The position numbers and the translations under genes were made by a program. Source: Escherichia phage FL08. Taken from it: a stretch of DNA of 64,000 nucleotides. The stretch lies in sequence record PP400785; one strand, 5' to 3'. The notes under the pieces were generated by a model. The model saw nothing but the letters and a program-made list of their open reading frames with translations, was not told where the DNA came from and did no database searches. Every line of letters starts with the position of its first letter. The stretch's first letter is position 1. This document shows positions 12,542 to 64,000 of this stretch, piece by piece.

Positions 12542-12706
12542 TTACTCTTCTTTTTCTTTAGATTCCTCTTTTTTCTTTTTAGGAATCTGTTCAGGACCTT
12601 TATTTACTACAGCGCCTGACGTTGTTCCAGTAGAGATATTTTCAGGATTACCACCTGAATCTCCAGCTACCATATCTTCTTTGATAAATTCTTTATATGT
12701 TTTCAT
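12542..12706 (-). CDS. small protein (54 aa) with capsid-targeting-sequence-like N-terminus
   Basis: Sub-threshold ORF exactly filling the 61-upstream gap; SD AGAGG; N-terminus MKTYKEFIKE resembles T4 CTS MKTYQEFIAE; Lys/Glu-rich tail. Confidence 0.4.
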   Translation of the reverse strand: MKTYKEFIKEDMVAGDSGGNPENISTGTTSGAVVNKGPEQIPKKKKEESKEKEE

Positions 12707-56747: not shown

Positions 56748-57077
56748 TCAATTAGAAAATAAATTTATCCAAGATTGTTCTTTAATTAAAAATGGCTCAG
56801 AATCATATGCCATTAAACTTTGCGTAATTAATCCTTTAAAAGGTCCATCAATAAATTCCATGGTAAAATATGGAATTTTATTCATTAGCCGTGCATTAGG
56901 AGCAGTGCACAAAACTCTGCATCCTTTGAATACGCCTTTTTGTAATTTGTATTGCTTAGGATAAAATTCGCTTAAAATGTTATTTTTTGCTAAAATTTCA
57001 AAATGATTCACCAATTTATTTTTAATAGTTTTTGGCGAAAAATAAAGATATTCGAAAAGCTGAGTGTCTGTCATCAT
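56748..57077 (-). CDS. hypothetical protein (about 110 aa)
   Basis: start trimmed to ATG overlapping upstream stop. Confidence 0.4.
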
Positions 57078-57613
57078 TGCATTCCAATTACGAAAAACTG
57101 TGGACGAGTAATACCACCAATACAACATTTAATATTACAGCAGCAGTGTACAGTGTCAATATGGACACTATAAATCTTATCCATATCAGGAGATTTGACA
57201 GGCTCATCAATTATATACAAAATTCGCGAAAGCGATAAACCTCTGAACTTACTTCCTTTATTACCAATAAAACTGCGTACAGAATCAGTAAATAAACGAA
57301 AACGTATATCATCATTAGAATAACGCGAAAATTCCTTTTTGATGTTATTTGCAGAAATTTTAGCATAAGCTGAAGTATTAGAAAGAACAATAACTGTTCC
57401 GCCATCATACAACCAATTAGCAGCGAAGTTAGTCACAGCAATTGATTTACCGGATTGACGTCCACCATCTAGTCGAAGTGTGCAATACTGTTTAAGTAAG
57501 TCTTCAAATGGCGGGATATATTCGTTTTTACAAATTTCTTCTACTCTAGCATCAGAATGGTGTGTAAAAGCATTCATCAGGGATAGATAAGGACCAGTTA
57601 AAAATGTTCTCAT
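57074..57613 (-). CDS. P-loop-containing protein with Cys-cluster C-terminus
   Basis: GRQSGKS Walker A-like motif; C-terminal HCCCNIKCC; start trimmed to MRTFLTG. Confidence 0.45.
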   Translation of the reverse strand: MRTFLTGPYLSLMNAFTHHSDARVEEICKNEYIPPFEDLLKQYCTLRLDGGRQSGKSIAVTNFAANWLYDGGTVIVLSNTSAYAKISANNIKKEFSRYSNDDIRFRLFTDSVRSFIGNKGSKFRGLSLSRILYIIDEPVKSPDMDKIYSVHIDTVHCCCNIKCCIGGITRPQFFVIGMQ

Positions 57614-57754
57614 TTTGTTCTCTCTAGGTTTGGGACAATTCATGCGCCATGAATTGTCCATTTCTGTATTTACCCATTACCGCACTTAGGCTCGACCTTA
57701 TTACAGGTTGGCGGGAATCCCTTATAGAATCATAAGGTCCAGGTTGTTCCCATA

Positions 57755-58228
57755 TTATTTGAACGATTTAACGTACTGAATAGAACCTTTACTATTTACA
57801 AAGACAATTTTACCATTTTTATTATACATGGTAGCAGTACGTTGATAGCCATAAGTTTGTTTACCAGATTGATAACCAACTAATGCGAAATTATCTTCAC
57901 CCATTTTATTCTGTTTAGCGCGAATGCGTTCATGGCCATGTGCCATAAGAACCTTAGCATCACCTGTTGCAATGGATCGACGAGTTTTTTCATCTTCAAC
58001 TGTATTAACAAAATCGTCAAATGAATCAAATTTAGCATGAGATTTATTATACAGTTTTCCATCTACTGCATAATTATATCCTTGTACATCCATCTCAACT
58101 TCTGTACCATCATCCAGTACAGCAGTGATTTTCTGTCCTTTTTTAAATTTCAAAAGATCAGTAAAAGATTCAGCAATAATTTGAGAATTAATAGCTGCTT
58201 CAGTAATAAATTCTTGATATGTTTTCAT
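57755..58228 (-). CDS. internal protein (IP) with capsid targeting sequence
   Basis: N-terminus MKTYQEFITE matches T4 CTS MKTYQEFIAE 9/10; basic 157-aa body; position upstream of regB, adjacent to e. Confidence 0.6.
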   Translation of the reverse strand: MKTYQEFITEAAINSQIIAESFTDLLKFKKGQKITAVLDDGTEVEMDVQGYNYAVDGKLYNKSHAKFDSFDDFVNTVEDEKTRRSIATGDAKVLMAHGHERIRAKQNKMGEDNFALVGYQSGKQTYGYQRTATMYNKNGKIVFVNSKGSIQYVKSFK

Positions 58229-58322
58229 GTGTATCCTTTAAATGTAAATATTTTAATTAATAATTTATCTCTTCAAGTAACTGTGAATATACTATCACAA
58301 TTCTAGGAGAAAGTAAATAACT

Positions 58323-58853
<531 letters not shown>

Positions 58854-61797: not shown

Positions 61798-62130
61798 TTA
61801 TTCTTCGTCCAATTCATCAATAAATTTATCGATACTACTATTAATAGACTCATCGATGATTAACAAAGCATCATCATCCATAATATTAATATTTTCTAAA
61901 GCATCAATATAAGCTTGATTGACTATAGACCATGCCCTTTGAAAATATGGGGCTTCATCATCAGGACTGAACCAACGTACACCTTCAAAGATACGTTTGG
62001 CATAATCTAACACCCATTGTACAGGCATGTTTTGAGAACGTTCGTTAAACTCTTTAAAGTCCTTAGATTCAAAAAGCTCTTCAGGATAATAATTTCTATT
62101 ACAAAAAGCTTTACTAAAGTTACGTTTCAT
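61798..62130 (-). CDS. hypothetical acidic protein (110 aa)
   Basis: ORF preceded by GTTTAC early-promoter-like sequence. Confidence 0.4.
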   Translation of the reverse strand: MKRNFSKAFCNRNYYPEELFESKDFKEFNERSQNMPVQWVLDYAKRIFEGVRWFSPDDEAPYFQRAWSIVNQAYIDALENINIMDDDALLIIDESINSSIDKFIDELDEE

Positions 62131-62186
62131 AATGTTCTCCTCAAAGTTATAGGCTCATAATATCTCAATCATGAGCCTGTGTAAAC

Positions 62187-62450
62187 TTATTTCATATTAT
62201 TGAAATATTCTTCTGCGATTTCATCGTTATCATGGTAAACTTTAGAAGACAGTTTAACATAACCTTCAGCAGTGAACATGTTAATCACAACCTTTACAGT
62301 ATACCACTGACCATCTTCATTACCCATTACTGCGTAAGTTTCAAACATCGGATGATCAGGACCGATAACTTTAATATCATTCACTGTACGACCAAAATCT
62401 TCTGAAACACATTTCATAAAGAAGTTGAACAGTTCGCCGTAATTATCCAT
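62187..62450 (-). CDS. hypothetical protein (87 aa)
   Basis: start trimmed to ATG after GGAG; track start is a TTG in promoter leader. Confidence 0.4.
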   Translation of the reverse strand: MDNYGELFNFFMKCVSEDFGRTVNDIKVIGPDHPMFETYAVMGNEDGQWYTVKVVINMFTAEGYVKLSSKVYHDNDEIAEEYFNNMK

Positions 62451-62487
62451 TTCATTCTCCAAGTTGTTTTCTGTATCAGTAGTTGAT

Positions 62488-62550
62488 AGTTGTATAGTAC
62501 CATGGAAGGGTAAGGATGTAAACTGTTTTGTGAAAAAATTTTTAAAAAGT
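62488..62550 (-). promoter_or_regulatory. early promoter cassette
   Basis: aaaaattttttcacaaaacaGTTTACatcc-18nt-TACTATAC on minus strand. Confidence 0.6.
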
Positions 62551-62633
62551 TTTGGGGAATTCTAGGGCAGGGAGGGGCAATTAAAAGATAGGATAATATA
62601 TTATAAAGGGTAGAAACTAAATGATGTCTAGAG

Positions 62634-62649
62634 AGGCCCGGAAAGGCCT
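62634..62649 (-). terminator. hairpin (aggcc-cggaa-aggcct)
   Basis: inverted repeat in 3' region of IP-like gene. Confidence 0.4.
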
Positions 62650-62660
62650 AGATACCAAAA

Positions 62661-62684
62661 AGCCCCAACCTTTTGGTCGGGGCT
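62661..62684 (-). terminator. terminator hairpin, copy 1 of direct repeat flanking IP-like gene
   Basis: agccccaacc-tttt-ggtcggggct; followed by UUUUU on minus transcript; near-identical copy at 63217..63240. Confidence 0.55.
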
Positions 62685-62691
62685 AAGAATG

Positions 62692-63165
62692 TTATTTGAT
62701 TTGTTTAGCAGACCAAATGCGATCTTTAATAATTTTTTGGATGTCTTCAACATACTCTAGGTCATGAGCATGTGGATTATCTTTGAAACTATGAGCTCGC
62801 GCAAGTTTCTGGCCTTCGGTCTTAATTATCAAAAGTTCTTTAAGAATTGCTTCATACCTAGAGATAATTCCTTTAGCAATATTTTTTTCTTGTGCTGCTT
62901 TAGGGTCAGCCTTAGGAGCAGGTTTACCTGAAGCCTTTGCAAAAGCAGCTCCAGTAGCAACTAAACTTTTCCAGGCCATACTAACTGCATTTCCCGTAAA
63001 TCCTTCCGCTTTCATGTCGCGTGCGAACTGGAATCGCGATTCATCAGAAGCATCTTTATAAGAATATTTACCCGCTGCAATGGCTGCTTTTGCGACAGCT
63101 TGAATTTCGGTGCTAGATGCTTCATTTAACACCGCTTCATTTAAAAATTGAGTATATGATTTCAT
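62692..63165 (-). CDS. internal-protein-like protein with CTS-like N-terminus
   Basis: 157 aa; N-terminus MKSYTQFLNE resembles CTS; Lys/Ala-rich; late promoter TATAAATA upstream. Confidence 0.55.
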   Translation of the reverse strand: MKSYTQFLNEAVLNEASSTEIQAVAKAAIAAGKYSYKDASDESRFQFARDMKAEGFTGNAVSMAWKSLVATGAAFAKASGKPAPKADPKAAQEKNIAKGIISRYEAILKELLIIKTEGQKLARAHSFKDNPHAHDLEYVEDIQKIIKDRIWSAKQIK

Positions 63166-63201
63166 CTTATTTCCTGTTTTAATTCGTGGTTTTAATATAC
63201 T

Positions 63202-63209
63202 TATTTATA
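63202..63209 (-). promoter_or_regulatory. late promoter (TATAAATA) for IP-like gene
   Basis: minus-strand TATAAATA ~35 nt upstream of ATG, directly after terminator hairpin. Confidence 0.55.
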
Positions 63210-63216
63210 CTAAAAA

Positions 63217-63240
63217 GCCCCAACCTTTCGGTCGGGGCTA
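63217..63240 (-). terminator. terminator hairpin, copy 2 of direct repeat
   Basis: agccccaacc-tttc-ggtcggggct with U-run on minus transcript. Confidence 0.55.
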
Positions 63241-63287
63241 AGCCTTGCGGCAACCTTGTCGGGGTTCCACCTGCTAAGGCAAGTGTT

Positions 63288-63382
63288 TGTACGAAACGCC
63301 GGGATTCGAACCCGGTTATCAAGCAGTTGACGCTACTCAATATTTTTAAAAGGCCATATCTCGACCATATCCGAACGTTCCG
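63288..63382 (-). ncRNA. tRNA-like / small stable RNA candidate (unresolved)
   Basis: Minus-strand T-arm CCGGG-TTCGAAT-CCCGG and 7-nt acceptor-like 3' segment pairing with CGGAACG ~90 nt upstream; could not fold a canonical cloverleaf by hand. Confidence 0.3.
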
Positions 63383-63555
63383 TCAAAAACGCTACTCGGC
63401 TTACGGCAAAGATATTTCCTCGAATCGATAATTCGGTGCGCCGTTTCTGCTGTGATGTAAGGGGACATTAACAAAACATAAAGATTTATTAATGCCAGTC
63501 CTTAAACAGGGAACATCAGTCCGACGACTTGCCGGTAGCGACCCGGCTTCTTGTC

Positions 63556-63631
63556 TGGTCGAGGCAGTAGGGATCGAACCTACGACCCAGGACTTAGAAG
63601 GTCCTTGCTCTTCCTTCTGAGCTATGCCTCG
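63556..63631 (-). tRNA. tRNA-Arg (anticodon TCT)
   Basis: 76-nt cloverleaf on minus strand: 7-bp acceptor CGAGGCA/TGCCTCG, anticodon loop CTTCTAA, T-loop GGTTCGATCC, encoded CCA. Confidence 0.85.
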
Positions 63632-63634
63632 TAG

Positions 63635-64000
63635 TTAAAATTTCATTTTTCGACCTTTAAACCATCCTTCTGGAATTGGGTCAGTTTTCTTAATACGTTT
63701 AGAAACTTTTTCATCTAATGAATGAATCCACATCATACCAAATTGGGAATTCTTTTCACCTTTCTGGTGATTATTTTTAGCGTGAGATTCTTTCATTTTA
63801 TTAATAGTTTCAGGAGTATGGGTCTTACCCAAGAAAGATTTAGTATTTAAAAATTTCTCTCTATACTTAGGATTATCCCAAAGCTGTTTAAACCTTTCTG
63901 AACCCATTTTACGATATTTTTCTTTAAGGTCTGGGTCGTTCTCAAATCTGGTTTTAAAAGCGGCAGCTCCTTTTAAGGAAGCTTCTTTCTTTTTATCCAA
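63635..64000 (-). CDS. GIY-YIG (Seg-like) homing endonuclease, C-terminal part; segB-like by position
   Basis: Truncated by window edge; NUMOD-like repeats (GKTHTPETINKMKESH, GEKNSQFGMMWIH); stops 3 nt from tRNA-Arg. Confidence 0.5.
   Translation of the reverse strand: MDKKKEASLKGAAAFKTRFENDPDLKEKYRKMGSERFKQLWDNPKYREKFLNTKSFLGKTHTPETINKMKESHAKNNHQKGEKNSQFGMMWIHSLDEKVSKRIKKTDPIPEGWFKGRKMKF

Follow-up and report, generated by a model that had tools for sequence, protein, structure and literature searches.

A probable polymorphic internal-protein locus between rnaC and e.8 in T4-type phages

Of the accessory proteins of T-even phages, only the injected internal proteins (IPs) act prior to the expression of any phage gene. 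In 2025, all three IPs of T4 were shown to be specific inhibitors of type IV restriction, with Ip1, Ip2 and Ip3 each inhibiting a different GmrSD enzyme (PMC12373910). The IP genes are described as polymorphic and shuffled, with a common leader and conserved expression signals, in the accounts that cite the 1994 study of Repoila et al. (EMBO J 13:4181; PMC12373910, PMC4122927, PMC3012670). Furthermore, insertions and deletions arise in T4-type genomes through recombination between terminator/promoter motifs, and a homology of less than 50 bp is enough for T4 recombination (PMC2839356). Here we analyze a stretch of 64,000 nucleotides from Escherichia phage FL08 (sequence record PP400785; hereafter, the window), in which a small open reading frame (ORF) is encoded on the minus strand between rnaC, which specifies a small stable RNA, and the early gene e.8. 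We consider it probable that the rnaC/e.8 site is a third, unannotated and polymorphic IP locus occupied by a late, insulated unit, the product of which would be packaged and injected, and that such units are swapped by short-homology recombination. The direct observations behind this interpretation are the anatomy of the cassette, a 555-nt indel relative to T4, the multi-state polymorphism of the site, a homology break between the leader and the cargo, and the presence of a relative's protein in mass spectrometry of a virion preparation.

The cargo ORF (62692-63165, minus strand) encodes 157 amino acids (aa), starts with MKSYTQFLNEAVLNEA and belongs to phrog_2280, a family of unknown function. 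An earlier, sequence-only reading of this stretch had pointed out both the ORF and the likeness of its N-terminus, MKSYTQFLNE, to the T4 capsid targeting sequence (CTS), and both points held up: the family leader consensus, MKTYNEFLNE.vL.E/A (the slash marks the predicted cut), is close to the leader of T4 IPII and IPIII, MKTYQEFIAE/A, with 7 of 10 positions matching plus an I/L substitution. The leader, codons 1-15 (63121-63165, minus strand; MKSYTQFLNEAVLNE), is of the capsid-targeting type and contains two (L)xE motifs of the prohead protease; cleavage is predicted after E10 and/or E15, within LNE/A at residues 8-11 and 13-16, which is conserved across the family. When the window is translated in all six frames, the pattern M[KY][ST][YF].[EQ]F[ILT].E is found three times, always at the start of an ORF, and not once in any of 30 shuffles. 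The leader region also shows a weak match to phrog_7857, annotated as 'internal virion protein', and is kept across the family while the cargo diverges.

Mature forms were predicted by cutting at the last (L/I/V)xE within the first 24 residues, a rule that reproduces the published 76-residue IPI* (PMC3012670). The predicted mature form of the window's cargo, which we denote A, comprises about 142 aa, with a mass of 15.5 kDa and an isoelectric point (pI) of 9.55, and the mature cargos of the entire family fall within 15.5-21.5 kDa, pI 9.5-9.8 and a net charge of +7 to +14. Under the same rule, T4 IPII (pI 9.56) and IPIII (pI 9.65) are basic like the cargos. The AlphaFold2 model (predicted local distance difference test, pLDDT, of 79.7) is all-helical, with a three-helix N-terminal domain, a low-confidence Pro/Ala/Lys-rich linker and a helical C-terminal domain; residues 1-15 are modeled as disordered (pLDDT < 50). 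A Pfam search with the cargo ORF detected no family, a Foldseek comparison of the model with PDB found no fold match with E < 1, the same comparison with BFVD retrieved members of the same family only, and BLASTP against T4 IPII and IPIII gave no significant alignment. Among billions of proteins, the family amounts to about 40 clusters when grouped at 90% identity and to 25 representatives at 50%, none of which has a named product; a literature search for RB32ORF133c returned no match. With so few clusters, found mostly on contigs of about 165-175 kb, the family therefore appears to be confined to phages of the Tevenvirinae type.

The ORF is embedded in a compact expression unit. A T4-type late promoter, TATAAATA, is located at 63202-63209 (minus strand), exactly where the sequence-only reading had placed it, directly behind the T-run of an upstream hairpin and 36 nt upstream of the ATG, which is preceded at a distance of about 6 nt by the ribosome-binding site (RBS) AGGA. 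The bare TATAAATA motif is not enriched in the window (6 matches vs 11.3 expected), and it is the placement of the motif rather than its mere presence that carries weight. The same motif is found at the equivalent place in fPS-2, RB33, C6 and moskry and in the contigs L013-L025; in WFbE185 and WL-3, the late promoter is a 7/8 variant, and in MHG19, TATAAATA is located upstream of the ORF and is preceded by a different hairpin.

The two hairpins, copy 1 at 63212-63241 (stem-loop 63216-63239) and copy 2 at 62657-62686 (stem-loop 62661-62684), both on the minus strand, had been described as near-identical terminators that differ at one loop base, and folding together with terminator scoring agrees with this description. 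In both, 7 of the 10 bp of the stem are GC pairs, the loop reads GAAA or AAAA and a T5 tail follows; both score as intrinsic terminators, with RNA folding energies of -20.7 kcal/mol (z -3.5) for copy 1 and -19.7 kcal/mol (z -3.7) for copy 2. The direct repeat that contains them spans 36 nt (62652-62687 vs 63207-63242; 34/36 identical; spacing 555), and its 30-nt core occurs twice in the 64 kb against an expectation of zero. The proposal that both hairpins flank the cassette as parts of it is correct for the 3' copy, which is the cassette's own terminator as well as its right boundary and right homology arm; the upstream copy, by contrast, belongs to the tRNA/rnaD/rnaC unit as its resident terminator and provides the left boundary and left homology arm. 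It is assigned to the backbone because T4 has a single copy at this place and because the global alignment of the window with T4 contains one gap, of exactly 555 nt, which equals the repeat period, in flanks identical at 421 of 445 positions. The rnaC hairpin is likewise present in single copy, at the same place, in PST and T2, and the T4 record X03016 labels it as a potential terminator. The cassette proper thus consists of the late promoter, the RBS, the ORF and the second hairpin.

Comparison of the T-even genomes revealed that the site is found in several states, as expected if the repeat-bounded unit is a module: empty, with cargo A, with another cargo, with cargos in tandem, and with an insert unrelated to IPs. 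The segment 62100-63700 is of the Tequatrovirus type, with 97.6% identity to Yersinia phage fPS-2, and hundreds of T4-like coliphages match it at 93-98% identity. At least 80% of the cassette is present in 469 of the 644 phage records that match the cassette query, and the ORF is intact in those 469; T4, T2, T6 and RB10 match the query via a single hairpin only, and the site is empty in T4, T2, T6 and PST. Counts from junction queries are confounded by the joining of nearby pieces in the search tool: we trust those of the A-to-spacer junction (277 records) and of the A-to-C tandem junction (128 records) and distrust those for the empty (302) and rnaC-to-C (165) junctions. We therefore rely on the span of the match in 60 evenly spaced rows of the 729 records that match the T4 rnaC-e.8 interval. 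Among the 41 Tequatrovirus rows classified in this sample, about 20 carry cargo A (~1015 bp), 8 are empty (~460 bp), 5 carry cargo C (~1138 bp), 3 carry A followed by C (1689 bp), and 5 match only the rnaC half, which implies a larger insert. In the A+C tandems, the hairpin is present in a third copy, which lies between the two units.

Alternative cargos occupy the equivalent site in C6, moskry, WL-3, MHG19 and IMG/VR contigs. Two members of Mosigvirus mar005p1 differ in their cargo, a 154-aa A-type protein in WFbE185 and a 210-aa B-type protein in moskry; the Dhakavirus C6 has a 205-aa B-type cargo; and MHG19, an unclassified Tevenvirinae phage of Yersinia, encodes a family member at the equivalent position. 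Further members were identified in Yersinia phage fHe-Yen9-01 and Klebsiella phage KP01. In WL-3 (MT968995.1), the intact 187-aa C-type ORF at 1622-2185 was missed by the deposited annotation, which lists tiny ORFs on both strands instead. Because the members span Tequatrovirus, Mosigvirus, Dhakavirus and further Tevenvirinae-type phages, the empty site of T4, T2 and T6 is likelier to result from deletion than to represent the ancestral state. The same rnaC-proximal site in the Dhakavirus-like contigs L013, L014, L020, L023 and L025 (3424-3978, minus strand, in the latter) harbors a 184-aa ORF that lacks a CTS, starts with MKLLKYLSWILLVPLDF, has a hydrophobic N-terminus and its own TATAAATA, belongs to phrog_2143 (unknown function) and is unrelated to the cargos; in the IMG/VR contigs, it occurs alone, ahead of a B cargo or behind an A cargo.

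All cargos are assigned to phrog_2280, which would suggest a single gene family. This possibility was rejected: with the leaders stripped, the profile comparison of A with B or C is not significant (E 0.005-0.04), in contrast to that of B with C (E 4e-6). Stripped A is clearly similar to the N-terminal domain of the fHe-Yen9-01/KP01 type (hhalign E 2e-26). On sequence comparison, then, one leader is common to at least two cargo classes plus mosaics. The mosaics are gp153 of fHe-Yen9-01 and its KP01 counterpart, with an A-type N-terminal domain (57-60% identical) and a C-terminal part that aligns weakly to the B-type cargos, a combination that suggests recombination inside the linker as well. 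The Pro/Ala/Lys-rich linker is common to the cargos, and the B cargos contain a long KPAKPAKAPVAKP-type tract. Several copies appear to be degenerating: Shigella phage SfPhi01 (111 aa) and contig L022 (a 126-aa B-type ORF) encode truncated cargos, and contig L021 retains an MKLLK* remnant behind the A' terminator, which is consistent with dispensability and ongoing decay.

The positions at which homology stops are informative with regard to the exchange. In the comparisons of A with C in Tequatrovirus and of A with B in Mosigvirus, identity extends as far as the T-run of the rnaC hairpin, beyond which the sequences are unrelated. The A-type unit of contig L020 and the B-type unit of C6 are identical from the rnaC trailer via the hairpin, TATAAATA, the untranslated region (UTR), the ATG and the leader to ..LTEA and unrelated thereafter; this block contains two mismatches only, both in leader codons, and the break falls at the predicted protease site. 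With homology breaks at each of them, the hairpin and the promoter/UTR/leader block both qualify as exchange points. Repeat-mediated excision cannot account for all states because the B and C cassettes have no terminal copy of the rnaC hairpin and end instead in hairpins unrelated to it. These unrelated hairpins lend some plausibility to the view that the window simply contains two ordinary terminators, that of rnaC and that of the ORF, which resemble each other by descent or convergence, with the indels arising through illegitimate recombination or SegB-driven co-conversion of an entire segment, and the presence of segB, a homing endonuclease gene, some 470 bp upstream and the lack of any transposed copy or circular excision product of the cassette among the genomes searched point in the same direction. 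We regard this explanation as unlikely given that the T4 gap has exactly the length of the repeat period, with one hairpin left intact, that an extra hairpin copy separates the cassettes in the A+C tandems, and that the 3' hairpin of the Mosigvirus A cassette is more like the local rnaC hairpin of Mosigvirus than like its Tequatrovirus counterpart. In addition, short homology suffices for phage recombination, and the mechanism has been demonstrated for the promoter-early stem-loop motifs known as PeSLs (PMC2839356). The notion that the T4 hairpin is a hybrid between the two copies of the window (loop G, tail G) was considered and found weak, as fPS-2 and RB33 carry other combinations of these polymorphisms.

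Data on virions come from Yersinia phage fD1, which carries the cassette and encodes an orthologue, g140, identical to the window's protein at 151/157 positions. In liquid chromatography-tandem mass spectrometry (LC-MS/MS) of fD1 virions, g140 was classed among the proteins associated with the phage particle (PPAP) at the strict threshold, with the entry 'No' for a similar T4 protein (PMC8309999, Table S3). The prospect raised by the sequence-only reading, that the protein might be absent from virions, is thus not what was found, but the preparation was not clean, and the result stands for expression and co-purification rather than a proven internal location. The publication on fPS-2 contains no proteome.

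These data bear on the possibility that the product is an unpackaged late cytoplasmic accessory protein that inherited its CTS likeness without targeting, for example, via recombination with ip genes. Clearly non-structural proteins contaminate the fD1 proteome, the window's leader MKSYTQFLNE is less canonical than the family consensus, and an equally good start, MKTYKEFIKE, is found in an ORF of the early region. Nevertheless, this scenario appears quite improbable: the leader with its LxE/A sites is the best conserved part of proteins in which the cargo has diverged beyond recognition, the homology break between L020 and C6 falls exactly at the predicted cleavage site, the late promoter would drive expression when proheads assemble, and the protein exceeds the strict threshold in the fD1 virion preparations.

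Under the internal-protein interpretation, a self-contained late unit would have been inserted directly after the tRNA/rnaD/rnaC terminator, leaving the adjacent early transcription units undisturbed because each cassette brings a promoter and a terminator of its own. By analogy with T4 IPI-III, the leader would take the cargo protein into the scaffolding core of the prohead, where the gp21 prohead protease would remove it at LNE/A; the mature protein of about 15.5 kDa would stay with the packaged DNA and enter the host alongside it. Recombination between the hairpin copies, or within the hairpin/promoter/UTR/leader block, would then delete, insert, swap and stack cargos.

With respect to function, it is quite possible, if somewhat short of an even chance, that the injected cargo acts against host defense or on the incoming DNA; the argument for an anti-restriction role is the analogy with Ip1-3 (PMC12373910). 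Extending this line of thought, the rnaC/e.8 junction could be an integron-like landing site, where a constant linker, made up of the hairpin, the late promoter, the UTR and the cleavable leader, lets unrelated injected counter-defense cargos be swapped, stacked and dropped through short-homology recombination, with each class (A, B/C and the A/B mosaics) disarming a different defense. This proposal is speculative and we consider it doubtful, but, if true, the locus would have been overlooked because T4, T2 and T6 lack it.

A serious alternative, though on balance a somewhat unlikely one, is that the proteins are packaged but structural or DNA-associated in the manner of histone H1, so that they organize or neutralize the DNA or aid its ejection, with the variability reflecting weak constraint. 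All cargos are basic, with the net charges given above, and contain the Pro/Ala/Lys-rich linker, and the KPAKPAKAPVAKP-type tract of the B cargos resembles the DNA-binding tails of H1 and AlgP. The gene is frequently lost or truncated without obvious cost, and about 1000 internal protein molecules are embedded in T4 DNA (PMC3012670). Conversely, all T4 IPs tested are specific inhibitors of type IV restriction (PMC12373910), and the replacement of cargos within one species as well as their tandem stacking resemble diversifying host-range equipment more than neutral drift.

Several points weigh against the interpretation of the site as an IP locus. The targeting, cleavage, injection, function and recombination mechanism of the cassette are inferred. 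No sequence or fold kinship of the cargo was detected to any characterized anti-defense protein, including IPI*. The fD1 virion preparation also scored rIIA, DenV, NudE and lysozyme, with 113-137 of the 277 phage products and 672 host proteins (PMC8309999). The CTS-like ORF of the early region, 54 aa at 12542-12706 (minus strand), occupies the T4 61.1 position between a 61.2-like ORF and the primase gene and belongs to phrog_1823 (unknown function); it has no TATAAATA nearby and yet a leader as good as those of real IPs. The leader motif alone is therefore no proof of packaging, and this ORF either encodes an unrecognized small packaged peptide or is a caution on the motif. Expert annotations that name Ip genes (Ip7 in RB33; IpIV-VI in PST) leave the cassette ORF or its site unnamed; in PST, which was annotated by IP experts, the cassette is absent. 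T4 ipI, ipII and ipIII and PST ipV and ipVI have sigma-70-type early promoters within 90 nt upstream, unlike the cassette with its TATAAATA behind a terminator. The unrelated terminal hairpins of the B and C cassettes belong here as well, and no cassette was seen at any other site in the genomes searched, so that any mobility beyond the rnaC/e.8 site would be hypothetical.

Placed on the T4 map, the order on the minus strand is segB, tRNA-Arg, rnaD, rnaC, the cassette ORF, e.8, an ORF in the e.7 position and e.6, so that the cassette ORF comes after the end of the tRNA/small-RNA unit and ahead of the gene that opens the e.8-e.1 early cluster. All of the following features are on the minus strand. 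The 3' part of segB occupies 63635-64000 and continues past the end of the window, tRNA-Arg was called at 63556-63631, and rnaD (63434-63554) and rnaC (63290-63428) were delineated by local alignment to the annotated genes of T4 and RB33. A scan of 62000-64000 with Rfam E-values detected tRNA-Arg only, with no family in the spacer or the hairpins; rnaC and rnaD (species 1 and 2 RNAs) are clear by alignment, yet match no Rfam family even in this permissive E-value scan. T4 SegB co-converts flanking DNA, and such co-conversion could help to spread a cassette state that is linked to segB.

Downstream of the cassette, the Tequatrovirus spacer (62523-62656) is C-rich on the coding strand and G-rich on the plus strand and contains a weak second hairpin (z = -1.9) and an A/T-rich tract. 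It is followed by a sigma-70-type early promoter of e.8 (62494-62522; TTTACA, a 17-nt spacer, TACTAT and a TG extension), which is a predicted early promoter in the fPS-2 annotation and is kept in all Tequatrovirus loci examined, and by e.8 itself, the first downstream early gene (62187-62450, ATG at 62450; phrog_2678). The sequence-only reading had counted the G-rich 3' flank as part of the cassette. The G-richness is real, with 30% G on the plus strand at 62545-62650 compared to 14.9% in the whole window, which is the 99.9th percentile, and the maximum GC skew of the entire 64-kb window falls in this flank, where the GC content is ordinary (0.30-0.42). The flank is backbone, however: the spacer is about 95% identical in T4, PST, RB33, WL-3 and fD1 irrespective of the cassette state, and the spacer and the e.8 promoter lie outside the cassette because the cassette-less T4 has both. 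The modularity and the IP-like nature proposed in that reading stand, whereas the spacer and the upstream hairpin have to be reassigned to the backbone of a site that is not a classical IP locus. The G-rich spacer is absent from Mosigvirus and Dhakavirus. Within it, GGGGAATTCTAGGGCAGGGAGGGG (62554-62577, plus strand) is the only canonical G-quadruplex motif of the window; a G-quadruplex function of the spacer was considered, and the motif is degraded in T4 and PST. The idea that the spacer is part of the T4 origin oriE was rejected, since a review places oriE near repEA/repEB with 12-nt iterons.

Both IP polymorphism, of a kind known since 1994, and shuffling mediated by terminator/promoter motifs are already established, and the locus adds no new concept. 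It does add at least two unrelated candidate cargo classes, which T4, T2 and T6 lack and which several hundred sequenced phages of Tequatrovirus, Mosigvirus and Dhakavirus carry, many of these phages being candidates for therapy. Its value lies in the candidate injected proteins that it supplies and in module exchange displayed by a clean natural example, which can be employed to test short regulatory repeats as drivers of T4-type plasticity.

Among the known systems, the closest are the T4 IPI-III loci. The common features are the N-terminal MKTY.EF(I/L).E leader with its LxE/A site, on small, basic and dispensable proteins; the same orientation as the surrounding early genes; and, as far as the accounts that cite the original work on IP loci describe it, a fixed site with extreme variation in the number, order and identity of the genes combined with conservation of the leader and the expression signals. 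The location is different, however, between rnaC and e.8, as opposed to next to 57B or between e and denV/vs.8 for the classical loci, and the cargo proteins are unrelated to IPI-IV. Furthermore, the cassette is not named as Ip in the records examined. The window also has an e-proximal IP locus (57074-58817, minus strand) with a single IpIV-type gene at 57755-58228 (157 aa, MKTYQEFITE.., phrog_3155, 'internal virion protein') and neither ipII, ipIII nor denV between e (58323-58817) and vs.8 (57074-57661); the e-proximal locus contains denV in fD1, ipIII in PST, and ipIII, ipII and denV in T4.

The delivery route proposed for the cassette has parallels in Alt, gp67 and gp68, CTS-bearing head proteins of T4 that gp21 processes, and in the CTS-fusion packaging of Mullaney and Black, as cited in PMC3012670, with an N-terminal targeting peptide cut at (L/I)xE and delivery into the head interior. 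Alt, gp67 and gp68, however, are conserved proteins with core or enzymatic roles, and their genes are located in the head gene cluster or elsewhere rather than in polymorphic cassettes.

In its mode of exchange, the locus is most similar to the PeSL cassettes, ORFs of plastic regions that are bracketed by stem-loop terminator/promoter motifs, the insulation of which permits harmless gain and loss of modules (PMC2839356, PMC4122927). In both cases, the end points of indels and replacements are found in a repeated motif, here, the hairpin repeat that bounds the 555-nt gap. In contrast to the PeSL cassettes, the 5' stem-loop of the cassette is joined to the late promoter TATAAATA rather than to a strong sigma-70 early promoter; only the 3' side is PeSL-like, in that the e.8 early promoter comes after a hairpin, with 134 bp of spacer in between in Tequatrovirus; and the leader-coding segment of the cassette serves as a region of homology too.

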